A DNA stretch of 64,000 nucleotides, from the IMG/VR virus record IMGVR_UViG_3300042868_003731, positions 153,967-217,966 of that record; one strand, 5' to 3'. Positions 37,781 to 59,376 of this stretch are shown piece by piece (the first letter of the stretch is position 1; every line of letters begins with the position of its first letter). The position numbers and the translations under genes were made by a program. The notes beneath the pieces were generated by a model, which saw only the letters and a program-made list of their open reading frames with translations, was not told the DNA's origin and did not search any database. The DNA is from a virus (taxonomy: Duplodnaviria; Heunggongvirae; Uroviricota; Caudoviricetes).

Positions 37781-38002
37781 TTAGTTGGTCATTTCAAGTG
37801 TTACGAGGTTAAGATCTTTAAGTATCTTGAAGTTAAGAGTTGTTAGATCGACTTCTGGGTCTAATCTCAATAGAGAGATGAGTCTATCGACGAATATAAG
37901 TTCCTTATCATGTTCTGACGCAATTGATAACGATTCGAATAATGTCTCTAAGTCGTATGGATTTTCATAGAAAACCCTAGGTTTTGTTTTCTGTTTTTGC
38001 AT
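37781..38002 (-). CDS. Hypothetical protein (start trimmed to an internal Met to limit overlap with the kinase gene)
   Basis: The track ORF 37781..38071 overlaps the dNMP kinase C-terminus by 95 nt. An internal start at MQKQ (38002) is assumed. Confidence 0.3.
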   Translation of the reverse strand: MQKQKTKPRVFYENPYDLETLFESLSIASEHDKELIFVDRLISLLRLDPEVDLTTLNFKILKDLNLVTLEMTN

Positions 38003-38612
38003 CACGTTCCTTATCGTAAATATCTTGGAGAACATCATGGAACTCCTCAAGAGAACCATTGTTATGTACACGATAGGTACGGATTGGAAATTTGTGAGAG
38101 AGCACGTGTTCGCTATCGATCTCTGTCGTCTCGCGAATAACGTATTCTTTTTCTAATCTTCCATTGAAATATCGGCGTGAGTCTGAAGAGTAGTCGCACC
38201 CATTGCGTGTAAGCTGAACCAATAGTATATTTTCAGCTCTAACTCTATTTATTAATGGAACTAATTCCTCTTCGAAGCCGCCGTCTGAGATCGCGTAGTC
38301 AACGCCATCTTCGATCTTCGATGCCACTGCGACACCAAATACGTCCTTACCGAAGGCAGGTTTCGTGATCACTTCTGATACATAGATCATAGCTTCTCGT
38401 CTCGACATGTCTTCGAGAAGTTCTTCTTTTCTCTCTTTGACGGATCTATCGTTATAGCCATCCATGAACCATTCTTTGTCAACGCCAAAGAAAGAGATGG
38501 TCTCTTCGAATAGAACATCCTTAAAACTTAAATGAGTAAATCCGCGGCGAGCGAAATACGCCGCAGATTCATCTTTACCAGATCCAGGAGGACCATTAAA
38601 AATTACGATCAA
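37977..38612 (-). CDS. 1: Deoxynucleoside monophosphate kinase (T4 gp1-like)
   Basis: Walker A 'IFNGPPGSGKDESAAYF' with C-terminal 'VHNNGSLEEFHDVLQ', parallel to T4 gp1 'IFLSGVKRSGKDTTADF' and 'ITNDGSLEELFSKIK'. Confidence 0.7.
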   Translation of the reverse strand: MIVIFNGPPGSGKDESAAYFARRGFTHLSFKDVLFEETISFFGVDKEWFMDGYNDRSVKERKEELLEDMSRREAMIYVSEVITKPAFGKDVFGVAVASKIEDGVDYAISDGGFEEELVPLINRVRAENILLVQLTRNGCDYSSDSRRYFNGRLEKEYVIRETTEIDSEHVLSHKFPIRTYRVHNNGSLEEFHDVLQDIYDKERDAKTENKT

Positions 38613-42969: not shown

Positions 42970-43212
42970 TCAATTCTCTTTAGCGTATTTTTCATCGATG
43001 CCGAGCTCTTCCATCTCGCAGCTCACGGCGAATTCATTCGTCGGAAACATGAACAAAGTTTGCGGATCGATATTTTCCGGTTCCGCATAACTCTGCTCAA
43101 GGTCTAACGTCATCGTTCGCGTGAGTGACAAACACTCGTCGGCAGTTTGACCTTCATAGCCAAGCTGCATCACGACCGCACCAGAGTACCATAGTGTAGC
43201 CCAATAAGTCAT
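42970..43212 (-). CDS. Hypothetical protein
   Basis: ORF. Confidence 0.35.
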   Translation of the reverse strand: MTYWATLWYSGAVVMQLGYEGQTADECLSLTRTMTLDLEQSYAEPENIDPQTLFMFPTNEFAVSCEMEELGIDEKYAKEN

Positions 43213-44355
43213 TTACTTCATTCCCATCCAAGTTGCGCATTCATCCCACTTGACGTTAGACGACAATTGCTTTTCGATATGATCAAGGATCATCTCGCGA
43301 CCGTCACGGCCAGCGAAACGCCCAAACACATAGTTAGGAGCGAATGAGTCGTTGTCCTTGATGGACGGCATCCACTCCAAAGCGTAACGCTTGCGGTCGA
43401 GACCGCTTGCGACCACGGTGTTCCAGTAGCGATCGTAGATTTCTACGACAGCATGAAGCCGCTCTGCAAAACGAACCTCAAAGTTACGAACACGGTTTGC
43501 CTGAATGACAGGTAGCATCGGCATCACGTCGTCCATTTCCTCGTTGAGGATAAGAGCAACGATGTTACGGTCGAACACGATACGATCCACAGTCTTGTGG
43601 ATACGCACATACCAATCATTCTTGACCTTAACCATATGGCCATCAGCAAAACGAATGATGTCACCCTCACGACCTTCTGCACCGCGCTGACGGCTAATGT
43701 AGTCAGCAAGGTTGCCTTCTACACTACCATAACGAGGAACAGTGGAGAACGGACAAGACTTATCCATTACATACGCACCGGTTGCGTTGTCACGAGTACC
43801 AAGATACACGAGGTCTGCTTCTTCGTATGCCAACACGATCTGGTTGAACGGGCTTACCCACTCAAAGATCGGAGTCACCGAGTCGTGTACACACTGACGA
43901 AGCCATTCGTTCAACGAAGGGTCCTGAGCAGCAAGCCAGGTCTCAGCCTGCATAGCCACTTCAGTCACGCCCATCTTGGTAGCAAGACGAAGGTAACCAT
44001 CGACCAAGATAGGACGGATCATCGAACCATCGAGCTTTTCCATGATCACGTGATCAAACAAAACACTGAGATCCAACCGATGTGCTTGAGTCTCTTCACG
44101 TTCGTTCACGTTGAAGAACTTGTGAAACGGGCGGCTCATCAGGTTACCATCAGCATCAAAGATAAGACCACGGCATTCACGGCGGATCGCGCCACCAAGG
44201 TCATCGGGGCCAGTCATATCAAAGGTGTCAGCCATCGCCACCACATAGTTGACGATGGTATACCCTTCACGTTCTGCCACAACGAACTCAGGACGACCTT
44301 CGATGTGAGGAAGGACGTCTTCGATGGTGCGTATGATAGGAAAGGCGTAGTGCAT
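43213..44355 (-). CDS. rnlA: RNA ligase 1 (T4 RnlA-like)
   Basis: 'ECRGLIFDADGNLMSRPFHKFFNVNE', 'EKLDGSMI' (adenylation KxDG), 'IFEWVSPFNQIVLAY' and 'DGHMVKVKNDWYV' parallel T4 Rnl1 'ECRGIMFEMDGE..RPMEKFFNLNE', 'TKEDGSLV', 'NFEFVAPTNRIVLAY', 'DGSHFKIKSDWYV'. GC-elevated. Confidence 0.85.
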   Translation of the reverse strand: MHYAFPIIRTIEDVLPHIEGRPEFVVAEREGYTIVNYVVAMADTFDMTGPDDLGGAIRRECRGLIFDADGNLMSRPFHKFFNVNEREETQAHRLDLSVLFDHVIMEKLDGSMIRPILVDGYLRLATKMGVTEVAMQAETWLAAQDPSLNEWLRQCVHDSVTPIFEWVSPFNQIVLAYEEADLVYLGTRDNATGAYVMDKSCPFSTVPRYGSVEGNLADYISRQRGAEGREGDIIRFADGHMVKVKNDWYVRIHKTVDRIVFDRNIVALILNEEMDDVMPMLPVIQANRVRNFEVRFAERLHAVVEIYDRYWNTVVASGLDRKRYALEWMPSIKDNDSFAPNYVFGRFAGRDGREMILDHIEKQLSSNVKWDECATWMGMK

Positions 44356-44657
44356 TAGGTGTTCCTTTTTCGACTCGATAGATACTCTGTCATCTCAAGA
44401 GTGAGTTCACGAATTCGTGGCTTTACCGAAGCGTCATTATCTTGAACGAGTTTCTTCATAAGCTTCTCTCGTTCGCGGCGGAGGTCTCCAAATTTAGAAC
44501 CAATCCAGAGACCATTCGCCACTTCGTATTGTTTTTCGTCAGTCATTTTTAATCTTTGCTTTGCGCCATACACGATACCGATAGACAAACAAACCCAACA
44601 CGATGGCACCATCTGCATAGCTGTAACCATCAGTGACTTCTTCAAAATCTTCGGCAC
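44355..44657 (-). CDS. Hypothetical protein (start uncertain)
   Basis: ORF overlapping the next track ORF in another frame; one of the two is probably shorter than called. Confidence 0.25.
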   Translation of the reverse strand: MPKILKKSLMVTAMQMVPSCWVCLSIGIVYGAKQRLKMTDEKQYEVANGLWIGSKFGDLRREREKLMKKLVQDNDASVKPRIRELTLEMTEYLSSRKRNT

Positions 44658-44868
44658 GATACCAATGAAAACCGGACCACTTAATCCGAAGGAAGCCTAC
44701 TCTTTCAATACTACTTCGGCTTGGGCAGGCACGACCCTGGTTGCAGTCACTGTTACACGAAGAACAAGTCATTCTGCTTTTCCTAGCACAAGATCTTCGA
44801 TTGCACCGTACACAACGAGTACGATAAGAAAGACGACGGGGATCATTACAGCGGTCATTAGAAGTCAC
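44539..44868 (-). CDS. Hypothetical Cys/Arg-rich ORF (doubtful)
   Basis: GC-rich segment; the ORF may be an artefact. Confidence 0.2.
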   Translation of the reverse strand: MTSNDRCNDPRRLSYRTRCVRCNRRSCARKSRMTCSSCNSDCNQGRACPSRSSIERVGFLRIKWSGFHWYRAEDFEEVTDGYSYADGAIVLGLFVYRYRVWRKAKIKND

Positions 44869-45066
44869 TCCAGTTCATTGCCATACCGACATTCGTTTCG
44901 GCGTTACGCTTAGCAGCTTCGAAGTCCACGAAAGGACCGGCTGAGGTGAAGTTGTCGAGCAGACGACCCTCGGGGGTAAAGACCATGTAACCTTTGAAAG
45001 TCTTATGGATCATAACCGGCTTGATGGAGTTGGTAGCTTCGTTGTGTTCGTTGAAGGTCATCATGG
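44858..45066 (-). CDS. Small hypothetical protein (~69 aa, MMTFNEHNEATNSIKPVMIHK...), trimmed to the RBS-preceded ATG
   Basis: The track ORF extends through the upstream promoter cassette. AAGGAA-N7-ATGATG defines the start. Confidence 0.4.
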
Positions 45067-45079
45067 TCAGTTTCCTTTC

Positions 45080-45123
45080 GTTCCTTACATTATTAGAATA
45101 CACTGATTCTAAACGAATGTAAA
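45080..45123 (-). promoter_or_regulatory. Conserved early promoter-leader cassette copy 3 (-35 TTTACA variant)
   Basis: Identical to copies 1 and 2 except that the -35 reads TTTACA and the upstream flank shares AATAGGAAAGTGCACT with copy 4. Confidence 0.6.
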
Positions 45124-45149
45124 TAGGAAAGTGCACTGACCACGATTTT

Positions 45150-45461
45150 TTAGGAAATATTTTTCCAATTGCGAACGTATTCGACCTTCTTCTCACGAGT
45201 CCAATCTTTAAGATAGTCGTTGTCAGCGTCGAACTTCTCGAGCATCTGTTCTTCGGTGAGAATCTCCGAGTCGATGATAGTCTCGCCAACGTGCTTCTGA
45301 GAAAACTCTACTACCTCGTCACAGGTAACACAGTCTTCAGCCCATTCGATCTCACGTCCTTCGACAGGAACTTCAACGTTCAATTCCTGCAGTTCATCTA
45401 CAGGAATACAATACCGCATACGGTAAGACGAGATAGCAGTTACGATTACATATTTGGTCAT
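45150..45461 (-). CDS. Hypothetical acidic protein
   Basis: ORF. Confidence 0.35.
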   Translation of the reverse strand: MTKYVIVTAISSYRMRYCIPVDELQELNVEVPVEGREIEWAEDCVTCDEVVEFSQKHVGETIIDSEILTEEQMLEKFDADNDYLKDWTREKKVEYVRNWKNIS

Positions 45462-45823
45462 TTAATTAAATTACTCCAAGTTTTAAGTTTATTTCGCTTT
45501 ACATCTACTCTATCATCTAATTCATCATTAGTCAAGACGCCGTGTTCTACCATTAGTTTAATCATACAAAGCACATCACCTGCTTCTTCAACTAGTTGAT
45601 ACCTATATTTGTCTTTAGACATATCTTCCATGTTATCATACTTACGCATAATTTTCATGCAGACTTGAGTTAATTCGCCCGATTCTTCTGCTGTAATTGC
45701 CATTAACTGTTGGAAGGCATTAATTGGAGATTTTAGTTCTTCGTTACTTACCATGTCTTCTTTCCCGCAATCTCGCCCAGCGTGGTGCGGGCCATATCTC
45801 TTGCATACGTGTCTTCTCCCCAA
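45458..45823 (-). CDS. mazG: MazG-like nucleoside triphosphate pyrophosphohydrolase
   Basis: 'AEESGELTQVCMK' and 'LVEEAGDVLCMI' form the two EExxE/D metal-binding helices of the MazG fold. Confidence 0.55.
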   Translation of the reverse strand: MGRRHVCKRYGPHHAGRDCGKEDMVSNEELKSPINAFQQLMAITAEESGELTQVCMKIMRKYDNMEDMSKDKYRYQLVEEAGDVLCMIKLMVEHGVLTNDELDDRVDVKRNKLKTWSNLIK

Positions 45824-46017
45824 ACATAGATTGCATTAAGACCCCCGACGGCCTTCGCCAGATTGTCCTCTAGTTCTTCGATGCGGTCGGCGGCTTCGAG
45901 AGCATCTTCATCTTTCCACTCAATCCGCTTGTACCCGTCAATAGACTCAAACTCTTGCCGCTTCCGCAGCCGCTTCACCAGTTCTTCGTCAGTCATTTTA
46001 CTTCCTTTGCAATACAA
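45748..46017 (-). CDS. Hypothetical protein (probable start at MTDEELVKRL, ~45996)
   Basis: ORF; an upstream ATGA chain couples it to two unannotated small ORFs. Confidence 0.35.
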   Translation of the reverse strand: MYCKGSKMTDEELVKRLRKRQEFESIDGYKRIEWKDEDALEAADRIEELEDNLAKAVGGLNAIYVWGEDTYARDMARTTLGEIAGKKTW

Positions 46018-46323
46018 TATCCTTCCAAGGCGCGCACCGGCTCAAGCTGTGTAATAGCAGATTTGCAAGAATCATAATTAGGGAATTCCAGTGTTGTAAT
46101 AGCAGCTCCGTTATAAGAGCTGATTAGAATAAGAATATATGCGCCTGCTGTGTCAATCATTTGCTCACCTTTGTAACTGCCTTACGCAGCTCTCCACCTT
46201 CAAAGTTATCCATTGCCAGATAGTGTTTCAGTTTAGCATTATCTGGATCCACTCGATGCAACTCCTGTGCAAGAGTTTCGATTAGATCGTAGTCCAGTTG
46301 AGTTTTGATATGTTTACCCATTA
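45994..46323 (-). CDS. Two unannotated tandem small ORFs (~56 aa MIDTAGAYILILISSYNG... and ~54 aa MGKHIKTQLDYDLIETLAQ...) joined by ATGA overlaps
   Basis: My own translation; each start overlaps the previous stop (TAATG / AAATGA). Reported as one span. Confidence 0.3.
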
Positions 46324-46767
46324 GAAGTCCTCCTCACCTTGATAGACGTTAAACACAAAGATACCAGCATCACGCCACATGCGAACCACGCGAGGACGAT
46401 CGTCAAACACCATGTCTGGCTTCTTACCAAAGTCAGAGATGATTTGATCCAGCATTTCACGCTTTACAATATCATCACCACGGAAGTCATCTGCGGGACG
46501 CATGTAGAGCTTGTCCCACGTATGCAGGTTGTTCTTAGTCAACCATGCGACTGTGGCTTCACGACTGCGCTCGTTGCGACCGCTCGCTAGGACAATGGTG
46601 TTCCTAGCAGCACTTAGAGAGTGAAAGGCTTCCGCAACAAATCGGTTCACTTTATCATTCGGAATGCCAGCATCAAATGCAGCCCAGTTCTTAGGCTTGC
46701 TACGAACATAGTCCAAACGATGCTCGATGTTAGCGAGTGTTCCGTCCAAGTCAAATACGATTAGCAT
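46321..46767 (-). CDS. Polynucleotide 3'-phosphatase (stand-alone phosphatase domain of T4 PseT/Pnkp; HAD family)
   Basis: 'FDLDGTLA', 'SGRNERSREATVAWL' and 'VFDDRPRVVRMWRDAGIFVFNVYQGEEDF' parallel T4 Pnkp 'FDVDGTLA', 'SGRESGTKEDPTKYY', '[27 protein letters not shown]'. Confidence 0.8.
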   Translation of the reverse strand: MLIVFDLDGTLANIEHRLDYVRSKPKNWAAFDAGIPNDKVNRFVAEAFHSLSAARNTIVLASGRNERSREATVAWLTKNNLHTWDKLYMRPADDFRGDDIVKREMLDQIISDFGKKPDMVFDDRPRVVRMWRDAGIFVFNVYQGEEDF

Positions 46768-47116
46768 TTATAATCCTCAGATAGTTGTTCAGCAAGCCTT
46801 CGATGTTTGCTTTGCCGATAGGGTTTTGTGAGTGGACGTAGAAGTCAAAGTTGTCTGGAAGCGGGTAGCGCTTATCATTCATATCCCAATACATAATACG
46901 TTTAGCGACATCGTGACCGGTGGGTTCATCTTGACCAAGATCGTGATCAAATGAAATATATGATGGCATTCCTCTCGTCCTAACAGCTATAACAACTTCA
47001 TAAAAATTGCGGCAGATCACCCACTCTTCGTTACGATACTTCTCGCGAACCTGCCAAGGTGCCCAAGTGGCATCCTCGAGGTTACGTTCGTCATCAAGAA
47101 ACAGGTTCCAAGTCAT
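46751..47116 (-). CDS. Hypothetical protein
   Basis: ORF; no motif. Confidence 0.35.
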   Translation of the reverse strand: MTWNLFLDDERNLEDATWAPWQVREKYRNEEWVICRNFYEVVIAVRTRGMPSYISFDHDLGQDEPTGHDVAKRIMYWDMNDKRYPLPDNFDFYVHSQNPIGKANIEGLLNNYLRIINANRI

Positions 47117-47117
47117 C

Positions 47118-47279
47118 TTAGATCACCTTTGCGATTTCAATAAAAACATAGTACTCTTTGTCGAGACCTTCAACGATCTTTTCGACCTCTTCTTTTGTGT
47201 CTGCTCTAAACATGTCGTAAGACTCGAGTCGATCGCCGTAACGATCGAACTCTTCGTAGTGTGCGTAGACCTTGTACAT
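47118..47279 (-). CDS. Small hypothetical protein (~53 aa, MYKVYAHYEEFDRYGDR...)
   Basis: Trimmed from the track ORF 47118..47411, which overlaps 47290..47475 in another frame. Confidence 0.3.
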   Translation of the reverse strand: MYKVYAHYEEFDRYGDRLESYDMFRADTKEEVEKIVEGLDKEYYVFIEIAKVI

Positions 47280-47289
47280 CTGATTCTCC

Positions 47290-47475
47290 TTAGAAGCGAT
47301 ATTCTGCAGGTGCATCAACTGCGACTTCACGAACAACGAACTGCTCATAAGATGGCAGATCACGTTCAGCATCAACCAGATACTGTTGCGAAGCAGCTTC
47401 TGCGAGTTCACGAGACGAGTATACGCCTAGAAGGGTTTCACCTTCGTAGTCAGCAGCAAGAGTGAGTACAAACAT
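47290..47475 (-). CDS. Small hypothetical protein
   Basis: First ORF after cassette copy 4, with an AAGGAAC leader. Confidence 0.4.
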   Translation of the reverse strand: MFVLTLAADYEGETLLGVYSSRELAEAASQQYLVDAERDLPSYEQFVVREVAVDAPAEYRF

Positions 47476-47489
47476 CGGATGTTCCTTTC

Positions 47490-47535
47490 GTTCCTTACAT
47501 TATTAGAATATACTGATTCTAAATGAATGTAAATA
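47490..47535 (-). promoter_or_regulatory. Conserved early promoter-leader cassette copy 4
   Basis: Near-identical to copy 3 (TTTACA -35; one A/G change in the spacer). Confidence 0.6.
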
Positions 47536-47556
47536 GGAAAGTGCACTCTTTTTCAT

Positions 47557-48681
47557 TTAATCTTCTCTTTTTCCAAAGCCCCAATCGATTACGACTGGAA
47601 ACCGAGGAACGCCATCCGGAGTCGGAGTGAAGTAGCGAAGAGTAACCCAATCGGGTTTCTTGCCTGCATCCCAGAGAGCACGTAGAGTGTCCATGTCACC
47701 ACGAACACCAGCTTGGAAGTCACGAGTATCATTCAGTTTCAAAACAAAATGTTTAGTGCATCCCTGCCAGTTTCCAATACCAGACATCATTTCCTTGACT
47801 TCGAACTCGTCGGTCAAGAACTCTTTACGCTTCAGCAAGTTTTTCGTACGCTTGTTCTCGTAACGACCATCGATGCGGATCATCTGACCTTCGTATCCAT
47901 GTTCGAGATAACCCTCATACAGAGTATCGATCGACTGCGGATCGTTGACCTGCATGGTCGGAACCATCTTTACGAATTCGTTCGAAGCTTCGTAGCGCAA
48001 CAGCTCACGCTTACGGAACGGCAGATCCGGACTATCAGTCACATAGACGTCATAGACGTGATACTGCACGAGTTCCTTCGATTTCATGATGTCTTCGGGC
48101 TTCGGTTTTGTCTTACGAACCATCGAGGTGATGGTGTTGAAGTCATCCTTCAGCTCGTGATTATAGAGTTCGCCGTCAAGAATTAAGTTTGGATTCTTTT
48201 CAAAATAAGACTGCAGCGACTCCCAGACGTGAGGAACAGCGACGATTTCTTTTCCTGCGCGAGTCCATAGACCATCCTTACGAGCGATGCAACGAATGCC
48301 ATCGAGCTTCGGTTGACTATAGATGTATCCCTTTGACCAGTTAACCGGAACCTCTTCATACTTCTCAGCCAACATCGGCTTGAACTTATCAAAGGTATGG
48401 ATCATATCGATGTTAGAGAAATAGCCAGTATCTTCTTTCTTCTGCATTTCAGATACCATCTCAGCGTTTGCTTGCGCTTCGAGAGACGTCTCGTTTGAGC
48501 GTCCGACGTTCTTTTGTTCAACGAAGGTCCATTCAGAAGTAATCTGTTTTCCGTCCTGAAGCCCTGAGATCGTCCGTAGACCCCATCGAGTTCCATCAGT
48601 GCCGGTCTCTGCTCGCCAGACTCGCGTCTTACCTTTTGTATCTACCTTATACAGGTTCTCAGTGCTTGTTTTAACTTCCAT
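47557..48681 (-). CDS. ATP-dependent DNA ligase
   Basis: 'SQPKLDGIRC' carries the KxDGxR adenylation motif I in a ~370-aa protein with the expected downstream 'ILDGEL' and 'EGQMIR' motifs. Confidence 0.8.
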   Translation of the reverse strand: MEVKTSTENLYKVDTKGKTRVWRAETGTDGTRWGLRTISGLQDGKQITSEWTFVEQKNVGRSNETSLEAQANAEMVSEMQKKEDTGYFSNIDMIHTFDKFKPMLAEKYEEVPVNWSKGYIYSQPKLDGIRCIARKDGLWTRAGKEIVAVPHVWESLQSYFEKNPNLILDGELYNHELKDDFNTITSMVRKTKPKPEDIMKSKELVQYHVYDVYVTDSPDLPFRKRELLRYEASNEFVKMVPTMQVNDPQSIDTLYEGYLEHGYEGQMIRIDGRYENKRTKNLLKRKEFLTDEFEVKEMMSGIGNWQGCTKHFVLKLNDTRDFQAGVRGDMDTLRALWDAGKKPDWVTLRYFTPTPDGVPRFPVVIDWGFGKRED

Positions 48682-48744
48682 AACGATTCTCCGAATTGGT
48701 TCATACTTGTTCTGTATAAACTAGTTTTATGAGATTGTAAACAA

Positions 48745-48772
48745 AAAAGAGCGCCGAAGCGCTCTTTTTCTT
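48745..48772 (-). terminator. Rho-independent terminator after the SPFH gene (bidirectional-looking)
   Basis: AGAGCGC-CGAA-GCGCTCT hairpin flanked by an A-tract and a T-tract. Confidence 0.55.
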
Positions 48773-48784
48773 CATATTTTTATC

Positions 48785-49741
48785 TTACTGGGCTGGCTTA
48801 GCAACAACGTCCATGAATGGAACAGTCGAGTCTGGGATCATAGTGGTAGGAAGAGCACCGTTCCACTTTTCAGCTTGAACTAGAGCAATCAAACCTGCGT
48901 TATCCTTCAGAGCTTCTGCTTTCGCCTTAATCGCGCTTGCTTCTGCTTCACCTTGAATACGAGTTGCTTCTGCGGCCGCAACTGCTTGAGCTAGTTGAGC
49001 GTCGGCTTGTGCCTGTGCCTGAGTCACGACGATCTCAGCCTGAACCTTTTCACGTTCTGCGTTCTGCCGAACCTTTTGCACTTCGACTTCTGCAAGCATA
49101 CGAGCTTCAATCGATTGTTCATAAGCATCAGAGAAGTCGATGTTCTCAATTTGAACCGACTCAACGATGATAGGACCAATTACAGCTTTCTGGATTGCCA
49201 TCTGAACTTCTGCAGCAAGACGTTCACGTTCCTGAATAGCGGTTGCTGCGTTGAACTTACCAAAGACGTTCTTGACTTCTTCAAGAACCTGACGATCAAG
49301 CAAGCGAGAGATCACGCCAGCTTCGCCACCATATTCACGATAGATCGTCTCAACTTGATCTGCAGGGAAGCGATAGTTAACAGACAGGTTTAGACCCGCA
49401 GTCTGTTGATCACGAGAGTAAGCAAGGATGTTCTCGTACAACTGAGCCTGTGATTGAACAGAAATATCAACCACCTTTTCGATCAAAGGGATTTTAAATC
49501 CAAGACCTGGTTCTGCAGTACCAACCACGGCACCGTTACGAAGAGTTACACCACGGTAACCTTCATCAACAGTATACCACGATCCGCCAATTACAGTCAG
49601 TGCAGTAAGACCGACGACAGTAGCGATAGTTCCACCAACGATAGCATTCATTTTCATTTTCCTTTTACGTTCATTATATTGATTTAGTGCTGCTTCATAC
49701 TCAGCTTTAGTGTTAAAGTCATAGCGATCAGGTTTAAACAT
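48785..49741 (-). CDS. SPFH/band-7 (prohibitin/HflKC-like) membrane protein
   Basis: N-terminal TM helix, then 'YTVDEGYRGVTLRNGAV' and the long Ala/Glu/Gln-rich coiled-coil typical of band-7 proteins. GC-elevated. Confidence 0.75.
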   Translation of the reverse strand: MFKPDRYDFNTKAEYEAALNQYNERKRKMKMNAIVGGTIATVVGLTALTVIGGSWYTVDEGYRGVTLRNGAVVGTAEPGLGFKIPLIEKVVDISVQSQAQLYENILAYSRDQQTAGLNLSVNYRFPADQVETIYREYGGEAGVISRLLDRQVLEEVKNVFGKFNAATAIQERERLAAEVQMAIQKAVIGPIIVESVQIENIDFSDAYEQSIEARMLAEVEVQKVRQNAEREKVQAEIVVTQAQAQADAQLAQAVAAAEATRIQGEAEASAIKAKAEALKDNAGLIALVQAEKWNGALPTTMIPDSTVPFMDVVAKPAQ

Positions 49742-49919
49742 CAGGTTTATCTTTCGTTGTTACAGTGTTATCACGGACGTATTCATTACCATCTTCATCT
49801 TTGGTATACGTGAAGCGTTCAGGCTGGCGTTTAAACGTGATATTTGACACCACCCAATACGCACCAACACCAATCACAGCCGCAACGACAATGAAGCCAA
49901 TCATAGTATAAAAAGCCAT
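49734..49919 (-). CDS. Small single-pass membrane protein; possible NfeD-like partner of the SPFH protein
   Basis: One hydrophobic helix (MIGFIVVAAVIGVGAYWVV), immediately upstream with an ATGA-style overlap. Confidence 0.35.
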   Translation of the reverse strand: MAFYTMIGFIVVAAVIGVGAYWVVSNITFKRQPERFTYTKDEDGNEYVRDNTVTTKDKPDV

Positions 49920-49959
49920 CTATTCCTCCAATTTCCAATTAATAACTAAGTACGCAATA

Positions 49960-50544
49960 TCATGCATTTTTCTTCTCCATAATTACATTGCAAAAGATGT
50001 CGACAATGGTGATCTTATCGAAGCCTTCATCGAGTTCAGGTTCAACATAGGAATCAGCCATAGCTTCAATGATGTGATGAGGGATAGTCTTCCCAGGACG
50101 AGAATCAAGGCGACGATCGAGTTCAGCCCACTCTTCAGCAGTCTGAGGAACACGAACGCACCAACATTCCTTGTGATAGTTCTTAGGGAACTTCGACAAG
50201 ATGCTCTTACGCTTCTTCGAAGACATATTAGTCTGATCCCAGTACACATCAATCCCTGCGCTGATAGCAATTGCAAGCACATTATTCATATGCTTAGTTG
50301 CTTCGTTGATGTGATCACCGAACACGTCGTCGTAAGACTTACCAGCTTCTTTGGCTCGAGCTTCGATATATGCATCAGTGCTATACACAAAGACGTCTCC
50401 ACCAAACTCCGGATCGTCAACAAACGACAATCGAGTCGACTTACCTGAACCAGGCAGACCTACGAGAACTTCAACCTTAGGCATCTTCGCCAACCTCTGC
50501 ATCTTCAAAAATCTTGTTAAAGGTAATCTCGTTGTATTCGCCAC
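49960..50544 (-). CDS. Polynucleotide 5'-kinase (stand-alone kinase domain of T4 PseT/Pnkp)
   Basis: 'VLVGLPGSGKST' P-loop and 'WDQTNMSSKKRKSILSKF..CVRVPQTAEEWAELDRR..GKTIPHHIIEAM' parallel T4 Pnkp 'ISDTNLNPERRLAWETF..HKVFDVPWTELVKRNSKR..TKAVPIDVLRSM'. Confidence 0.65.
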   Translation of the reverse strand: MANTTRLPLTRFLKMQRLAKMPKVEVLVGLPGSGKSTRLSFVDDPEFGGDVFVYSTDAYIEARAKEAGKSYDDVFGDHINEATKHMNNVLAIAISAGIDVYWDQTNMSSKKRKSILSKFPKNYHKECWCVRVPQTAEEWAELDRRLDSRPGKTIPHHIIEAMADSYVEPELDEGFDKITIVDIFCNVIMEKKNA

Positions 50545-50755
50545 GGCCGGTCATGCCGAGTTCATAAAGTCGGGCCATCATCTTTGCATCGTGTTCAGTC
50601 TTGATATACATCGATGTGTCGAGATCGCCGTGCAACATACCTACTTCAGTTCTAAAGAAGTCAACTACATACATAGTTTTGGTATAGGAACCGTCAAAGT
50701 TGCCGTAGCAGACGTCGACTTCAACTTCTTCGGGGGTCACGATTGCGATAGCCAT
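50477..50755 (-). CDS. Hypothetical acidic protein
   Basis: ORF with a weak TTGACA-17-TATATC promoter-like sequence upstream (50782..50810). Confidence 0.35.
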   Translation of the reverse strand: MAIAIVTPEEVEVDVCYGNFDGSYTKTMYVVDFFRTEVGMLHGDLDTSMYIKTEHDAKMMARLYELGMTGRGEYNEITFNKIFEDAEVGEDA

Positions 50756-50818
50756 AGTTGTTCTCCATTGCTTACAATATAGATATAATCAATGTAGAAG
50801 CAAATGTCAATGGCTTTC

Positions 50819-51577
50819 TTAAACTTTTTTTCGAACAGACTCATTATATTTTACGGCAGCTTCTAGCGTCTGTAGCTCGACGCCTGAGTTCTTTGCCGTC
50901 TGCAGAATCGCCGCGGTATCCTTTGGAAAACACGCTCCGCCCCAGCCTCTATCGTTCTCATTTACAAAAGTATGGCTCTCACCGATACGAGAGTCTAACG
51001 TGACACCAGAGCGAACCGACTCGTAATCCAATCCGAGCGTTTCACAGAAATCGTAGATCTCGTTGAAGAAGCTACACTTTGCCGCAAGAAACGAGTTTCG
51101 AAAATACTTGATGGCAATTGCGTGCTTTGGCTTACATACAGTTATGCTGATGTCTGGATACACCGTCGTGTAAAAATCTAACCAGTATTGAACGTTACCG
51201 CCAGCCAAGAACGCATGAGTGAGGTTCTTAAGGTCGTCGTCTGCGCTTGCAGCTCGAAGAAATTCTGGACTAAATGTGATGGAGTGTTCAGGAAAGTTTC
51301 TTTCGAGAGTTTCCCATCCCTCCATCGATATCGTGCTCTTAATGAGAATTGGAGCTTCTTTTGGAATGTCTTGAATTACATTATAGATTATGCTCATATC
51401 ACAGCTTCCATCTTCAGATGATGGAGTCGAAACACAGACGATAGCACCACTAATGTTTTCTATGTCTTTGATACGAATATTGCTGAAGGCCGGATCTACG
51501 ATAGACATTTCGTGATGAGGGCTAAACGCTTTATAGTGAGCTTTACCAACGAAGCCGTATCCTAATAGTACAATCAT
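50819..51577 (-). CDS. Short UDP-glucose/GDP-mannose dehydrogenase-family protein
   Basis: N-terminal 'VLLGYGFVGKA' Rossmann motif and 'GWGGACFPKDTAAI' catalytic-Cys motif (GG.C.PKD). At 252 aa it is shorter than canonical UDPGDH. Confidence 0.6.
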   Translation of the reverse strand: MIVLLGYGFVGKAHYKAFSPHHEMSIVDPAFSNIRIKDIENISGAIVCVSTPSSEDGSCDMSIIYNVIQDIPKEAPILIKSTISMEGWETLERNFPEHSITFSPEFLRAASADDDLKNLTHAFLAGGNVQYWLDFYTTVYPDISITVCKPKHAIAIKYFRNSFLAAKCSFFNEIYDFCETLGLDYESVRSGVTLDSRIGESHTFVNENDRGWGGACFPKDTAAILQTAKNSGVELQTLEAAVKYNESVRKKV

Positions 51578-51587
51578 GGTTTATCCT

Positions 51588-52595
51588 CTAGTTAGTTTTA
51601 CAGTTTATAAGATTGTCTCGAAAAATGTTCCAAGCGTTTCCCCAATCCCATTTCATGCTGAATTTGTATACTGATTCTCTATCGAGGTCAAGAGATTTTT
51701 TAATAGCGATAGTGATATCCTCATCCATATAACCAGTTACATCTTGATCTATTACGTCTAATGGTCCTTGCACAGGATAAGCAGCGACCGGAGTACCGCA
51801 TGCCATTGCCTCAATCATCACCAATCCAAATGTATCCCAACGACTAGGAAACACAAAAACATCAGCCTGTTGATAATAATGCGCGAGTTCAGCACCACGT
51901 TTGGCACCTACAAAGTTCACGTAAGGATATTGCTTCTTGTATGTTTCTAACATAGGACCATCGCCTACGATAGTTTTAACTGCATTGGGGTAGTTTATCT
52001 CAAGAAAAGCTTCCAGATTTTTTTCTTTGCTTACTCGACTCACGCAAACGAGGTTAATGTGCGAGCATGGTTCTTTCACTGCCGGTTTGAATATATCCCT
52101 ATCAACTCCTCGAGTCCAATGAATAACATTGTTATTAAATCCATGCGCATGAAGTTCATCGACCATTGATTTTGTCGTAGTGAGTACCTTATTGCTATTC
52201 TTATGGAACCAGCGCACAACTGCCCAAGTAATTCCTTCAGGAATTCCTAGTAACGTCCTTACACCTTCAGGAAACTTAGTATGGTAAGCAGTATTGTACT
52301 TAATCCCACGTATTGCAAGATACCTTCTAGCAGACATACCCATAGGACCTTCTGTGGCGATGTGTATATAATCCGGATCAATCTTCTTGATCTCTTTCCC
52401 AACAACCCAAGGAGGTGCCCAGGCAAGCTTAACTTCATTGTACTTTGGGCAATCAATATGGCCGTACATCCCGGGATGAATATAATCAACAGTATAACCG
52501 TCGCGAATCGCATACGTCTCAATATTTTTGTAGGTCGTAACCACACCATTAATCTGATTCGGTAAGTTGTCTGTAACTATTAAGATCTTCGGCAT
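51588..52595 (-). CDS. GT4-family (GT-B) glycosyltransferase
   Basis: 'FPSRWDTFGLVMIEAMACGTPVAA' fits the E-x7-E motif. Confidence 0.7.
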   Translation of the reverse strand: MPKILIVTDNLPNQINGVVTTYKNIETYAIRDGYTVDYIHPGMYGHIDCPKYNEVKLAWAPPWVVGKEIKKIDPDYIHIATEGPMGMSARRYLAIRGIKYNTAYHTKFPEGVRTLLGIPEGITWAVVRWFHKNSNKVLTTTKSMVDELHAHGFNNNVIHWTRGVDRDIFKPAVKEPCSHINLVCVSRVSKEKNLEAFLEINYPNAVKTIVGDGPMLETYKKQYPYVNFVGAKRGAELAHYYQQADVFVFPSRWDTFGLVMIEAMACGTPVAAYPVQGPLDVIDQDVTGYMDEDITIAIKKSLDLDRESVYKFSMKWDWGNAWNIFRDNLINCKTN

Positions 52596-53319
52596 AATGC
52601 ACTATCTCCCATCTTCCATCAAAGTGTTCTACCAGAGCGGTGGCACTCTCGACCCAGTCGCCATCGTTCATGTATATAACACCATTTATTTCTTTTATTT
52701 CAGCATGATGAATGTGACCACAAATTATTCCGTCATATCCATGTTGCTTACAATAGGCAGCTAGATGTTCTTCGTAACGATTGATAAAGTTTAACGCGTG
52801 TTTAGTATTCTGTTTTAGATATTTACTTAAACTCCAATAGTCCATACCAAACAAACTTCTTACTCGATTAAACTGAACATTGGCATATATCATAGCGTCA
52901 TACAAAGTATCTCCAATGTGCATCAACCATTTTTTATCATGCATCAATACGTCAAAGAAGTCACCATGAATAACCAGATAACGTTTGCCGTCTAAACCTA
53001 TGTAGTCTTGTCTGTTAGTTACTTTAATATTACCGAAGCTGATATCAAAGTTTAAAAACTTACGGCCTGCTTCATCGTGATTACCTAATATGTATTCTAC
53101 TCTAGTGCCACGCTTAGCTGCCGTGAGTATTCTGCGTATCACATTGGCATGACTCTGTGGAAAGTACCAACGTTTCTTTAAGCGCCAACCATCCAGCATA
53201 TCACCAACTAGGAATAGGTTTTCGCTTGTGTTGTTTTTTAAGAAAACACAGAGGGCGTCTGCTTGACACCCTCTGGTTCCTAAATGCACATCACTTATGA
53301 AGATGCTTTTATATTTCAT
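52549..53319 (-). CDS. LpxH-like calcineurin-type metallophosphoesterase (nucleotide-sugar pyrophosphatase family)
   Basis: 'IFISDVHLG', 'LFLVGDMLDGW' and 'ICGHIHHAEI' match the LpxH arrangement (FISDLHL / GDlFeaWiGDD / GHTH). Confidence 0.5.
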   Translation of the reverse strand: MKYKSIFISDVHLGTRGCQADALCVFLKNNTSENLFLVGDMLDGWRLKKRWYFPQSHANVIRRILTAAKRGTRVEYILGNHDEAGRKFLNFDISFGNIKVTNRQDYIGLDGKRYLVIHGDFFDVLMHDKKWLMHIGDTLYDAMIYANVQFNRVRSLFGMDYWSLSKYLKQNTKHALNFINRYEEHLAAYCKQHGYDGIICGHIHHAEIKEINGVIYMNDGDWVESATALVEHFDGRWEIVHYAEDLNSYRQLTESD

Positions 53320-53321
53320 TC

Positions 53322-54287
53322 TTATTTAAGAGCAGAAACTTCAGCCTGAGTAGCTGCAAGTTCTGGATCTGGAACCAATCCATACTGTGCAAGAGCGCCA
53401 TCAGGACCTGCCATCTCATCACTCACGAAGAACTCGATGTATTCCTTCAGACCAGGAATGACGCTGAGGTGAGCGTTCTTCACGTAGAAGTAAAGTGGAC
53501 GGCTGATTGGATAGTCACCGCTTGAGATGGTTTCTACGCTTGGTGCCACGCCACTTACCGTGGCAACTTCTAGTTTATCAGTGTTGTTCTGATAGAAGCT
53601 AAGACCAAACACACCTAGCGATGTTTTATTAGCATCAAGACGAGCAAGTGTTTCTGTGTAGTCGCCATCGATGTCAACTGCTGCACCGTCAGTTCTTACT
53701 TTCACACAAGCTTTCTTTTGATCGTCATCGAGTTTCTCAACACCGAGAGCTGCTTTACAACCTTCTTCCATCACCTTTACATCGAACACTTCACGAGTGC
53801 CGTGTTTGGTACCTGGAATGTATGCAAGGATTGCTACTTCTGGAAGAGTCGAGTCGACTTCACTCCAGAGTTTTGCAGTGCTCGACTCGTGTAGAGCGCT
53901 ATAGAGTTGTTCGACTGTTAGATTATCGATATTAAGTTGATCGATGTTCGATGCAAACACGATACCGTCATAACCAATACGAACCTCAGTCACTTCACCA
54001 ATTGCTTCTTCACACTTGGCTCTTTCTTCATCCTTCATCTTTGAAGAACTATTTGCGATGTCAACAGTGTTTTCACCAACACCTTCGCAGAGCTTCTTAC
54101 GGCCTGCACCCGAACCACCACCTTCAACTACTGGCGACGGAAAATCAAAATTTTCACCAAATGCCTCTGCGACAATGGTTGCATATGGTAGTACTGTAGA
54201 CGATCCTGTTACTTGAACGTTATCTCTTGCAAACGCAGTCGTGGACGCCAAAGCAATAATTGCCGCCGCTGATAGTAAAGCTTTCAT
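53322..54287 (-). CDS. pstS: Periplasmic phosphate-binding protein PstS (PBP_like_2) with signal peptide
   Basis: Signal peptide 'MKALLSAAAIIALASTTAFA', then 'VQVTGSSTVLPYATIVAEAF' and 'GGGSGAGRKKL', the hallmarks of phosphate-binding SBPs. Confidence 0.75.
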   Translation of the reverse strand: MKALLSAAAIIALASTTAFARDNVQVTGSSTVLPYATIVAEAFGENFDFPSPVVEGGGSGAGRKKLCEGVGENTVDIANSSSKMKDEERAKCEEAIGEVTEVRIGYDGIVFASNIDQLNIDNLTVEQLYSALHESSTAKLWSEVDSTLPEVAILAYIPGTKHGTREVFDVKVMEEGCKAALGVEKLDDDQKKACVKVRTDGAAVDIDGDYTETLARLDANKTSLGVFGLSFYQNNTDKLEVATVSGVAPSVETISSGDYPISRPLYFYVKNAHLSVIPGLKEYIEFFVSDEMAGPDGALAQYGLVPDPELAATQAEVSALK

Positions 54288-55050: not shown

Positions 55051-55233
55051 TTATCCCTCGTATTTTTCTTTTAGTCGAGCAAGTTCGGCTCGTTCTTTAC
55101 GTTCTTTGTCTTTACGCAGCCATCTGATATAGATATCTTGGTCGTATGTACAATCCTTATTGCAGCATTCCCAACCGATAGGACCACAATCGGTGAGTGG
55201 CTGTTTACACCCTTCACATACTAACTCAGTCAT
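55051..55233 (-). CDS. Small Cys-rich zinc-ribbon-like protein
   Basis: CEGC...C..C...CC..C pattern in 60 aa. Confidence 0.35.
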   Translation of the reverse strand: MTELVCEGCKQPLTDCGPIGWECCNKDCTYDQDIYIRWLRKDKERKERAELARLKEKYEG

Positions 55234-55754
55234 TCGATTACCTCGTTTGGAAACTGTTCTGTTGGTACAAAAACATACTCAGGCTTTTCTGGTTGTGTCC
55301 ACGGAAACTCAATAAACACTCGGCTTTCACGACCCGTATAGTAGCTCTTATATGGTTTACCTTCGTCAATATCTGGCGATGAATACCATTCCCAAAACAC
55401 TCGACCATCCATCCAGTATGGTCGCCCATCTTCATCCTTAAAGACAGAACTGTTACGTTTGTTCTGCCACATATCTGCGCTGACTTCCGTCCACTCGTCA
55501 GATTCGCCAGTCAAAGGAGCAATAGGTTTCCATGATGCGAGCTTCTCAAACAAAGCTACTGCATACGGTGCCGACATACCGCTGTGTCCTTGTTCTGAGA
55601 ACACTTTGAGAAGCTCAAGCGTTCCTTCTGCAAGCCAACGGTTTGGTCCATCTTCTGGATCATTAATATCATATCCAGCCAGTTTAAGTTCGGCTTCCGC
55701 CCATTTCAACATGTTGCTCATTTGCTTTCCTCTATTAGATTTTTCAAGCGCCAC
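55230..55754 (-). CDS. Hypothetical protein
   Basis: ORF. Confidence 0.35.
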   Translation of the reverse strand: MALEKSNRGKQMSNMLKWAEAELKLAGYDINDPEDGPNRWLAEGTLELLKVFSEQGHSGMSAPYAVALFEKLASWKPIAPLTGESDEWTEVSADMWQNKRNSSVFKDEDGRPYWMDGRVFWEWYSSPDIDEGKPYKSYYTGRESRVFIEFPWTQPEKPEYVFVPTEQFPNEVIE

Positions 55755-55906: not shown

Positions 55907-56226
55907 TCTTTAGGCTTCTCATTATATGATTGCCAGGGAGTGTACCCTGTGGTGACAATTTTCGTGCCGTAATACGGTCTCATAAACGTAGGACAGTGAA
56001 TATCAGCACAGACATATCCCATTACTCCTCTAAACTCCATTCCACACTTTGAACATTTCACTGGAGGAGTTGGAATACCGTCACGAGGATATGGAACATG
56101 AGGAGGAATTGGATTAGGTTCATCTTTCTTAAGGAGGTGCTGAATGATCAAAGCAACATCATGCTTGATATCTTCAACATCAGACTGAATCTTCTCGATT
56201 GCCTTATTGCGTTCTTCTTTATTCAT
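55903..56226 (-). CDS. Hypothetical protein with a C-terminal CxxC...HC metal-binding-like segment
   Basis: 'CSKCGMEFRGVMGYVCADIHCPTF'. Confidence 0.35.
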   Translation of the reverse strand: MNKEERNKAIEKIQSDVEDIKHDVALIIQHLLKKDEPNPIPPHVPYPRDGIPTPPVKCSKCGMEFRGVMGYVCADIHCPTFMRPYYGTKIVTTGYTPWQSYNEKPKE

Positions 56227-56588
56227 TAGTTAATATCCTCATCTTCCCATTCTTTGGTGTATATCACATTTGAAGGTCGGTTGTACTTTTCAATCAGTGG
56301 CTTGATCTGGTCACGACGATAGCCAGCAAGACCACAACCAATAGGAGTCAGTAGAAACTCATCATCAGGATTAGCATATGCATACTTGATAAAGTCAGCG
56401 ATGTGTTGCTCAATTGCTTCAAGAGTAAGAGTCTTAAGACTAAAGTCTTTGGTGGGAATGGCATATGAACAGCCAGTCCGACCAACACCTACACCATACT
56501 CTGCGCCGTAGCGCTCGTGTGCATACTTAGCTGCCCCGGCACCGTGGCGACCAGCAAGGTTAGAACCAAAGACAAAGATCTTAGTCAT
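56226..56588 (-). CDS. Conserved hypothetical; possible macro/Rossmann-like nucleotide-binding fold
   Basis: 'IFVFGSNLAGRHGAGAAKYA' loosely resembles the macro-domain 'IVNAAN..L.GGGGVDGAI' P-loop. Low confidence. Confidence 0.3.
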   Translation of the reverse strand: MTKIFVFGSNLAGRHGAGAAKYAHERYGAEYGVGVGRTGCSYAIPTKDFSLKTLTLEAIEQHIADFIKYAYANPDDEFLLTPIGCGLAGYRRDQIKPLIEKYNRPSNVIYTKEWEDEDIN

Positions 56589-58826: not shown

Positions 58827-58986
58827 TTAGCATCCTTTACTTTAATATTGCCGCAGTGATCGCACTGCAACGTATAGCGATCACACGACCCTTTTGAAAA
58901 GTCGGTTTCATAATCAACTCTAAGTTTATCAATGATCTTCCACTTATGGATATGACCAAAGAAGAGTAGTTGAATTAGACGAATCA
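58825..58986 (-). CDS. Unannotated small Cys/His ORF (~54 aa, ...CDRYTLQCDHCGN...)
   Basis: My own translation; ATGA-coupled on both sides. Confidence 0.3.
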
Positions 58987-59376
58987 TTCCTTCACCTCAT
59001 ATACTGGAATTCCAGCTTTCTTTCCTTGTCGAATCATATCAGCGGTACCTTTACCACCTCTAAAAGCTATTATAACATGCGGTTGCCCAGATGTCAACAT
59101 TAATTTATTGCGAATTGGTCCTGCAGATCTTCCATGATTTGCCCAGTCTGCAGGAAATGATAGAACCTTAAGCGATCTCTCTCTTGCGTATTGATCTGCG
59201 AGAAGATCCGCCCCTCGTGCGTTTCCATGAATGATGACCAGAACTTTTTCTGCATTCCGGACTCCTTCATGTACTGCGTCAAGTACTCTTCTAAGTCGAA
59301 CGGAGTCTGAATAGTCTCTGCCTCCGCAGACGAGGACTCGGAACTCATCACCATCCATCCTTGAAATTGACTCCAC
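58984..59376 (-). CDS. SLOG-superfamily protein (DUF2493/YspA-like Rossmann nucleotide-binding domain)
   Basis: 'VLVCGGRDYSD', 'IIHGNARGADLLADQYA' and 'VIIAFRGGKGTADMI' give the GG.....GAD...A / GG.GT pattern of DprA/LOG/SLOG-type domains. Confidence 0.45.
   Translation of the reverse strand: MESISRMDGDEFRVLVCGGRDYSDSVRLRRVLDAVHEGVRNAEKVLVIIHGNARGADLLADQYARERSLKVLSFPADWANHGRSAGPIRNKLMLTSGQPHVIIAFRGGKGTADMIRQGKKAGIPVYEVKE

Follow-up and report, generated by a model that had tools for sequence, protein, structure and literature searches.

The viral DNA analysed here (64,000 nucleotides (nt), positions 153,967 to 217,966 of IMG/VR record IMGVR_UViG_3300042868_003731; hereafter the window) probably encodes, with a probability of roughly 0.7, an RNA heal-and-seal pathway that is unbundled into four separate proteins and carried by a distant T4-superfamily myovirus. 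The four genes lie on the minus strand and are predicted to supply (i) a sealing enzyme, Rnl1, of the T4 gp63/RnlA family (43213-44355, 380 amino acids (aa)), (ii) a stand-alone Pnkp-type HAD phosphatase that would heal 3' ends bearing a 3'-phosphate or a 2',3'-cyclic phosphate (46321-46767, 148 aa), (iii) a cREC (cyclic-phosphate processing receiver-like) protein, a predicted 2',3'-cyclic phosphodiesterase (46751-47116, 121 aa), and (iv) a stand-alone P-loop kinase of the AAA_33 / PNK-PSTK-zeta clade, a predicted 5'-OH polynucleotide kinase (49960-50484, 174 aa). RNA repair serves phages as a counter-defence where host nucleases cleave tRNA, and to our knowledge almost everything known of its biochemistry comes from the fused T4 Pnkp.

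A preliminary description of this DNA had named an RNA-repair trio of ligase, phosphatase and kinase. All three open reading frames (ORFs) are present on the minus strand, and the hidden Markov model (HMM) searches that had been proposed as a check give each of them a significant family match (Rnl1 to PF09511 at 4e-25, HAD to PF25109 at 2e-29, the kinase to AAA_33 at 8e-12). The analogy drawn with T4 Pnkp plus Rnl1 is well supported by these matches, by the HAD residues and by gene linkage. Two details needed correction. The set is a quartet rather than a trio, because an ORF that had been missed, and that overlaps the start of the HAD gene, matches the Pfam family cREC_REC. The kinase ORF exists and is a real homolog, and its GTG start at 50544 (194 aa) proved too long: homologs from metagenomes that share 95% identity with it have 174 aa, and the ATG at 50484 (M21) has a GAGG 9 nt upstream and an 8-nt overlap with the stop of the preceding ORF, so that the gene is assigned to 49960-50484. 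Kinase and phosphatase are, as described, separate genes about 3 kb apart: the kinase lies 3.2 kb from the cREC-HAD pair, with Rnl1 2 kb further on and a total extent of 7.3 kb. The genes between them are unrelated and include the MazG-like, ATP-dependent DNA ligase and SPFH/Band7 genes already reported there.

Alignment to the corresponding T4 parts, another early claim, is clear for Rnl1 and HAD. Rnl1 matches PF09511 (4.3e-25, 89.3 bits, cut-off 28.3), phrog_562 (3e-72) and, in the PDB, T4 Rnl1 (2c5u, 6e-30), the last colinearly over residues 59-369 of 380. The motifs found in 2c5u are kept: ECRG (R62), KFFN (K79), motif I K107-L-D-G, FEWV, EGDI and VKVKNDWY. The all-helical C-terminal domain associated with tRNA specificity (PF20819) reaches 21.9 bits for a cut-off of 27, the alignment to 2c5u still being colinear to residue 369, and the match to TIGR02308 (150 bits) falls under the equivalog cut-off of 242. 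By the NCBI rule the protein would thus rank as a divergent family member and not as an equivalog. Homologs of Rnl1 are scarce, occurring in 1829 of 50,697 phage records.

The phosphatase matches PF25109 HAD_PNKP (2.3e-29, 102.8 bits, cut-off 27.6), phrog_415 and phrog_505 (∼3e-34 each) and, among solved structures, Pnkp1 (4xrp, 1.4e-9), with T4 Pnkp (5uj0/1ltq) also matched. Its D6, D8, R17, S62-G63-R64, D98, K102 and D122-D123 align with D165, D167, R176, S211-R213, D254, K258 and D277-D278 of T4, and G9 and T10 complete the DxDGT nucleophile motif. The 42 stand-alone and 81 fused sequences that were compared all conserve these active-site positions, and every residue essential to the T4 Pnkp phosphatase is kept. 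Stand-alone HADs of this kind are often annotated ‘polynucleotide kinase’.

The cREC protein matches PF20274 (1.8e-21, 77 bits, cut-off 27). An alignment of 59 sequences has invariant D8, E10, R11, D57-H58-D59 and H95-S96-x-N98 and near-invariant D9 and K102, residues that resemble a receiver-type acidic pocket, as in CheY, with two added histidines. At the cREC stop and HAD start the two genes share 17 nt; a GAGG is suitably positioned for coupled translation, and the genes are probably translationally coupled. cREC overlaps a Pnkp-type HAD gene in the window and in four relatives (loci L007 and L089-L091), and it follows Rnl1 in six compact cassettes and in an Ochrobactrum phage. Earlier computational work has described the domain and linked it to RNA ligases, kinases, MazG and phosphatases of the HAD or calcineurin type (PMC7824862, PMC9503650), and it is experimentally uncharacterised according to the later of these papers (PMC9503650).

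In the case of the kinase, the family matches are to AAA_33 (7.7e-12, 46 bits), to the kinase half of the fused Pnkp family phrog_505 (8e-9), to Pfam Zeta_toxin (8e-7, 29.1 bits, cut-off 22.3) and, weakly, to the NCBIfam models for PSTK (1.4e-4) and eukaryotic PNK-3'Pase (4e-4). It is colinear with T4 Pnk, and the pairwise match is weak (20-25% identity, phmmer E = 0.53 against the PDB); the active site, fold and gene linkage were therefore examined. The alignment comprised 66 stand-alone members and 81 fused Pnkp kinase domains, together with a second set of 150 representatives at 50% identity. K15, S16, D37, T85, R125 and R129 of the window kinase correspond to T4 K15, S16, D35, T86, R122 and R126; they comprise the P-loop Lys and Ser, the Asp general base, the Thr anchor of the first phosphodiester and the two lid arginines, and all six are conserved in both groups and invariant or nearly so in the 66 and 150 family members. 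R92 is invariant among the 150 representatives, and the stand-alone family has an extra C-terminal segment, Y-V-E-P-x-L-x-E-G-F-D, that T4 does not have. In the stand-alone kinases the catalytic Asp is preceded by Thr or Ser, a residue that resembles Ser37 of the Clostridium thermocellum (Cth) enzyme, which contacts the first phosphodiester (PMC3902929). The AF2 (AlphaFold2) model has a mean confidence (pLDDT) of 91.6, and Foldseek searches with it return CthPnk, with the best mutual template-modelling (TM) score (0.66/0.67), mammalian PNKP, a Trl1-type fungal kinase, T4 Pnk and Pnkp1. The protein is not the generic nucleotide kinase that would have undone the earlier proposal, because a dNMP kinase is encoded separately as a second P-loop kinase (37977-38612, minus strand, 211 aa, phrog_139 2.6e-33); adenylate kinase appears only at Foldseek rank 49.

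Gene linkage is the strongest line of evidence for a role of the kinase in RNA repair. A census of 80 IMG/VR loci with a kinase homolog, reduced to 63 clusters at 90% identity, places Rnl1 within 10 kb of the kinase in 40/63, of which 21 have it within 500 nt. For a separate HAD of 150-170 aa the count within 10 kb is 28/63, with HAD upstream of the kinase at 25 of these loci, and for cREC it is 12/63; every partner found shares the strand of the kinase. Being seeded from the kinase, the census is no measure of how often HAD or Rnl1 occurs without it. The compact cassettes have the orders H-K-R (9), H-K-R-C (6) and H-R-K (2), where H is HAD, K the kinase, R Rnl1 and C cREC. Fused Pnkp served as a positive control: of its 66 clusters, 12, 21 and 32 have Rnl1 within 500, 2000 and 6000 nt. 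For the stand-alone kinase the figures are 21, 29 and 33 of 63, a linkage to Rnl1 no looser than that of genuine Pnkp. With Rnl1 in 1829 of 50,697 records and at 40 of 63 kinase loci, the co-occurrence is far beyond chance. Cultured phages follow the same pattern: the closest kinase homolog stands directly beside Rnl1 in roseophage DSS3P8, Caulobacter phage Cr30, Synechococcus B23, Bacillus Tsamsa-like and other phages, and Ochrobactrum phage vB_OspM_OC has a tight HAD-cREC-Rnl1-kinase cassette.

Taken together, the four proteins would work as a sequence of end-healing steps followed by sealing. A host ribonuclease would cut RNA, most plausibly in the anticodon loop of a tRNA, to leave a 2',3'-cyclic phosphate and a 5'-OH. 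cREC would open the cyclic phosphate to a phosphomonoester, an activity that is predicted and has never been shown for any cREC, and HAD would then remove the phosphate through its Asp6 nucleophile to give a 3'-OH, as its conserved active site suggests. The active-site residues, fold and linkage of the kinase are consistent with phosphorylation of the 5'-OH, with Asp37 as general base, and the motifs of Rnl1 with its adenylylation on Lys107 and the joining of the 3'-OH to the 5'-phosphate. HAD may also be able to process the cyclic end unaided, as the loci without cREC suggest; in such cassettes, which are most of the related ones, HAD probably suffices, as does T4 Pnkp, which has cyclic-phosphodiesterase activity of its own. 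Homology, catalytic-residue conservation, fold and strong, recurrent same-strand linkage of the four genes in many unrelated phages are what the data show; the chemistry and the substrate are inferred. It is reasonable to suppose from the repair genes, as the preliminary description did, that the host may deploy an RNA-cleaving defence.

Several observations weigh against this reading. Position 40 of the kinase, equivalent to T4 R38, is Ile. The Arg of this D-x-x-R motif (T4 R38, Cth R41) is essential in the T4 and C. thermocellum kinases and common to phage, bacterial and baculovirus repair kinases (PMC3902929); it is present in 81/81 fused Pnkp sequences and in 0/216 stand-alone ones, where I, L or V takes its place (66/66 and 150/150). 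The acceptor site of the window kinase must therefore differ, and polynucleotides are for this enzyme a predicted substrate. In Foldseek, zeta toxins, which are kinases of small molecules, rank as high as polynucleotide kinases, with similar significance. The predicted model of cREC has moderate confidence and weak fold matches, with no solved structure matched by sequence or by Foldseek; cREC is present at 12/63 kinase loci, and so is non-obligatory, and it could act on nucleotide signals instead. A literature search found no experimental paper on cREC later than those cited above and no characterised member of the stand-alone kinase family. The census loci, for their part, were picked via the kinase, and a tRNA scan of the whole 64-kb window found no tRNA genes and hence no link to phage tRNAs. 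A consensus scan also located a strong hairpin between the Band7 and DNA ligase genes (48744-48769). It has a perfect GC-rich 11-bp stem, AAAAAGAGCGC-CGAA-GCGCTCTTTTT, with A5 and T5 runs on its two sides, resembles an intrinsic terminator for both directions, and may split a unit containing the kinase from a unit with the ligase, cREC, HAD and Rnl1.

These observations leave room for other functions. The kinase and HAD might heal 5'-OH/3'-phosphate nicks in DNA for the interleaved ATP-dependent DNA ligase, whose gene (47557-48681) lies between the kinase and the cREC-HAD pair, with Rnl1 unrelated or engaged in tail-fibre attachment. T4 Pnkp acts on DNA as well as RNA, and mammalian PNKP, which is among the best structural matches of the kinase, heals DNA ends for DNA ligases. 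Repair of DNA ends is nevertheless very unlikely, since DNA ligase homologs occur near the kinase at only 3/63 loci, as against 40/63 for Rnl1, which is often adjacent; a DNA ligase is in any case expected as a T4-like replication enzyme, and the predicted substrates of cREC are cyclic phosphates, which are formed in RNA and not in DNA (PMC7824862, PMC9503650). Equally doubtful is a kinase of the zeta-toxin or small-molecule type, acting on UDP-sugars or NAD-type substrates and perhaps paired with an antitoxin-like partner. It would account for the missing D-x-x-R Arg, for a Zeta_toxin score above the cut-off (29.1 against 22.3 bits) and for zeta and PezT toxins among the top Foldseek hits (E ∼3e-7); a 92-aa ORF overlaps the kinase start by 8 nt, and sugar-nucleotide genes (UDP-glucose dehydrogenase, GT4) lie directly upstream. 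AAA_33 nonetheless outscores Zeta_toxin (46 against 29 bits), CthPnk has the best mutual TM-score, and the protein is 174 aa long where zeta toxins have ∼270. Its D-Q-T-N and lid R-x3-R motifs match PNK and PSTK and presumably not zeta. The 92-aa ORF is unrelated to the ORF upstream of the kinase in L089 (E 0.24) and occurs in only 10 closely related loci, whereas in most cassettes the upstream gene is HAD, and linkage to Rnl1 equals that of true Pnkp. A toxin-antitoxin pair of this ORF and the kinase was rejected: the partner is not conserved and has no family match.

The remaining functional alternative concerns cREC, which, perhaps together with HAD, might process immune signals or ADP-ribose derivatives (cyclic ADPR-type molecules, cyclic oligonucleotides, ADPr>p) as an anti-defence enzyme. 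Processing of cADPr or 2',3'-cyclic nucleotides has been proposed for cREC, and fusions with Nudix noted (PMC7824862, PMC9503650), genes for Tad3 (anti-Thoeris) and a YspA SLOG protein lie nearby, and cREC accompanies the kinase at only 12/63 loci. This is unlikely, though it deserves more weight than the two preceding proposals. In this lineage cREC is coupled by overlap to a Pnkp-type HAD, in six H-K-R-C loci it comes directly after Rnl1, the Ochrobactrum cassette also holds it, and among the scanned ORFs of the window no Nudix, sirtuin, KptA or Macro gene stands next to it. A signalling role is conceivable for cREC alone; its overlap with HAD and its position after Rnl1 favour RNA ends.

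A further matter is where the separate kinase and phosphatase of the set come from. The preliminary description had offered an ancestral unfused state or a secondary split, and had asked for a phylogeny of both halves against fused Pnkp. In neighbour-joining trees (distances capped for saturated pairs), stand-alone and fused sequences separate cleanly, for the kinase in 200/200 bootstraps and for HAD in 167/200. Identity of the window kinase to fused kinase domains does not exceed 25%, and to its stand-alone relatives the median is 45%; for HAD the values are at most 45% and a median of 73%. The best 120 of 584 kinase homologs are all stand-alone, as are the best 120 of 768 HAD homologs (147-162 aa). 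A HMMER scan of 1.84 billion representatives gave 549 kinase clusters (50% identity) at E <= 1e-30, and the best 150 of these 549 are all stand-alone proteins of 112-206 aa. Fused Pnkp genes are organised kinase-then-HAD in 80/80, opposite to the HAD-then-kinase order of the compact cassettes. A recent split of a T4-type bifunctional pseT, with the halves then moved apart, would agree with the homology of both proteins to the respective T4 Pnkp halves (phrog_505, PDB) and with the detection of 64/80 fused kinase domains by the stand-alone kinase HMM. The identities, the trees, the reversed gene order, the stand-alone state of all close homologs among those listed and the D-x-x-R Arg (81/81 against 0/216) nonetheless make it extremely improbable, and this part of the earlier proposal is rejected. 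The two architectures are old lineages that have evolved separately; which state is ancestral is not decided by unrooted trees whose sampling was seeded from two query types. The window kinase should properly be labelled a PNK-like stand-alone kinase and not "half of Pnkp", because it has neither the D-x-x-R Arg nor the fusion.

Public names for members of the kinase family are inconsistent: ‘putative polyA polymerase’, ‘zeta toxin’, ‘Kti12’, ‘ATPase’ and ‘polynucleotide kinase’ are all in use. The ‘polyA polymerase’ gp391 of phage phiN3 (L195 2485-3075), considered as a possible fusion, is a 196-aa member of the kinase family with no fusion.

The dispersal of the genes over 7.3 kb looks like the result of modular replacement and rearrangement within this phage group, and not like a feature of the system itself. 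A relative that is 94% identical (L007) has the same layout as the window. The more distant syntenic relatives L089-L091, in which HAD is 82% identical and which share Tad3, YspA, Band7 and glutaredoxin genes, have the order cREC-HAD, one or two small ORFs, kinase, four small ORFs and Rnl1. As these relatives keep the set within ∼4 kb, the 3-kb separation is lineage-specific. Their kinase is only 37% identical to that of the window, which groups with the kinases of the more distant metagenomic relatives L004 and L006 (63-69% identical); these, too, follow that 92-aa ORF and are remote from cREC and Rnl1. In the lineage of the window, the module would have been rearranged so that the kinase came to lie apart, upstream of Band7 and the DNA ligase.

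Other combinations of these families occur in relatives. In L004 and L006, cREC adjoins a conserved 376-aa weak-AAA protein, without HAD there, in a region that also has NadM-Nudix and NAMPT genes (NAD salvage). That of L006 encodes in addition a Thg1-like enzyme for repair of tRNA 5' ends, and the toolkit of these phages for tRNA and NAD maintenance may be a broader one. A 277-kb jumbo-phage-like contig (L092/L093) has this stand-alone HAD alongside Rnl1, an Rnl2-like ligase, an ADP-ribosylglycohydrolase and NAMPT, as well as a 248-aa AAA_33/Zeta kinase on the opposite strand and, in L093, a ‘Swiss-army-knife’ HAD.

A near-identity DNA search with 43000-51000 gave no match among the 50,697 phage records, and the phage was therefore placed through its proteins. 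TerL has 59% identity to that of Sinorhizobium phages phiM12 and phiN3 and ∼51% to those of Pseudoalteromonas and Methylophilales phages, which places the genome as that of a distant T4-superfamily myovirus. The repair genes belong to a dense minus-strand gene block (∼27,000-64,000) downstream of a plus-strand structural-gene block. A scan for promoter-like sites yielded 14 against 12.2 expected, which is chance level. A PstS-like periplasmic phosphate-binding protein (53322-54287, minus strand, PF12849 8e-54), kept in L007, is an auxiliary metabolic gene typical of aquatic phages; together with the many metagenomic relatives it suggests an environmental, aquatic origin.

The MazG-like NTP pyrophosphohydrolase gene (45458-45823, minus strand) lies between HAD and Rnl1. 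It matches phrog_4856 (4.8e-18), and Pfam MazG at 0.003, under the cut-off. MazG is found in neighbourhoods of the T4-like ligase, cREC and kinase (PMC9503650); homologs stand near the kinase at 3/63 loci only, on which ground MazG was rejected as a part of the system, and it is best listed as a possible accessory of uncertain membership. Band7, within 10 kb at 15/63 loci and never within 500 nt, was likewise set aside, its distribution fitting shared synteny in one phage group.

Further upstream, a sugar-related trio (50819-53319, minus strand) directly precedes the kinase region: a UDP-glucose/GDP-mannose dehydrogenase-like protein that is short (252 aa) and has no more than a part of the N-terminal NAD domain, a GT4 glycosyltransferase with a further match to the ‘GT4-conflict’ family (1e-7), and a 256-aa calcineurin-like phosphoesterase. 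The trio might serve DNA or surface glycosylation, and the calcineurin-like metallophosphatase could in principle be another end-healing enzyme. The 92-aa ORF that overlaps the kinase start by 8 nt (50477-50755, minus strand; ATGCCTAA) is acidic, has no family match, and stands beside the kinase in the 10 closely related loci and is absent from more distant ones. Also on the minus strand are Tad3, a Type I Thoeris inhibitor (55230-55754, 174 aa, Pfam 6.7e-39), which is found in L007 and L089 too and suggests a region rich in counter-defence genes; a phage non-structural protein of the A1S_2505 family (56226-56588, NF049995 5e-42); and a YspA/YAcAr SLOG-family protein (58984-59376, PF10686 5.6e-20). 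Binding or processing of nucleotide signals has been proposed in the literature for SLOG domains.

The set follows the same logic as T4 Pnkp plus Rnl1, which counter PrrC: a DxDGT HAD, a P-loop kinase and an Rnl1-family ligase, with all the phosphatase residues, the Rnl1 motifs and most of the kinase catalytic residues shared. It differs from T4 in that kinase and phosphatase are separate and belong to distinct stand-alone lineages, related cassettes having phosphatase then kinase; in the kinase, with no equivalent of Arg38 and an extra C-terminal segment; in the added cREC gene; and in an Rnl1 below the equivalog cut-off. HAD and cREC, for their part, are clear members of their families. The bacterial Pnkp-Hen1 and Pnkp1-Rnl-Hen1 systems (C. 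thermocellum; Capnocytophaga gingivalis, 4xrp) supply the best solved match of the window HAD, in the Pnkp1 HAD, and the best mutual-TM match of the kinase, in CthPnk, whose Ser37 the Thr before the catalytic Asp resembles. In contrast with the window, their enzymes are multidomain fusions; the window set has no Hen1 methyltransferase, and CthPnkp has a calcineurin-type phosphatase and keeps the D-x-x-R Arg.

Closest to the present case are the comparative analyses of Iyer, Anantharaman, Krishnan, Burroughs and Aravind (Viruses 2021, PMC7824862; 2022, PMC9503650), which describe the same components (T4-like ligase, cREC, kinase, MazG, and HAD or calcineurin-like phosphatase) and predict the same role, with cREC resolving 2',3'-cyclic phosphates ahead of a linear phosphatase. 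In those papers the PKN-HAD is usually fused to the kinase and the ligase/cREC/kinase/MazG neighbourhood is linked to a sirtuin; in the window, HAD is stand-alone and overlaps cREC, the set is spread over 7.3 kb, and the scanned ORFs include no sirtuin, KptA, 2H or Nudix. Ochrobactrum phage vB_OspM_OC (p110-p107) has the same four families as separate genes, contiguous there, unlike in the window. The kinase-Rnl1 pairs of DSS3P8, Cr30 and Bacillus Tsamsa-like phages are contiguous as well, and several carry the GenBank names ‘polynucleotide kinase’ and ‘RNA ligase 1’. Equivalent gene sets are therefore already present in GenBank phages and in the comparative-genomics literature, and the locus adds no new kind of system.

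What the locus does bring out is that many environmental phages use a separate kinase and phosphatase from distinct lineages, sometimes with cREC added. The points of interest are how a kinase without an Arg that is essential in every characterised RNA-repair kinase binds its acceptor, and the predicted cyclic-phosphodiesterase activity of cREC. The locus also warns that names such as Kti12, zeta toxin or poly(A) polymerase should not be given to these kinases lightly. A bolder and more tentative possibility, which falls somewhat short of an even chance, is that the stand-alone kinase is a mechanistically distinct 5'-OH RNA kinase, possibly specific for tRNA (as its weak PSTK/Kti12 affinity may hint) and unlike every characterised RNA-repair Pnk in acceptor binding, and that cREC represents a new, receiver-fold class of 2',3'-cyclic phosphodiesterase. 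With HAD and Rnl1 they would then make up a fully unbundled four-enzyme pathway of tRNA repair, which would be the common form in environmental T4-superfamily phages, and the window would offer a clean and complete four-gene set for its reconstitution.

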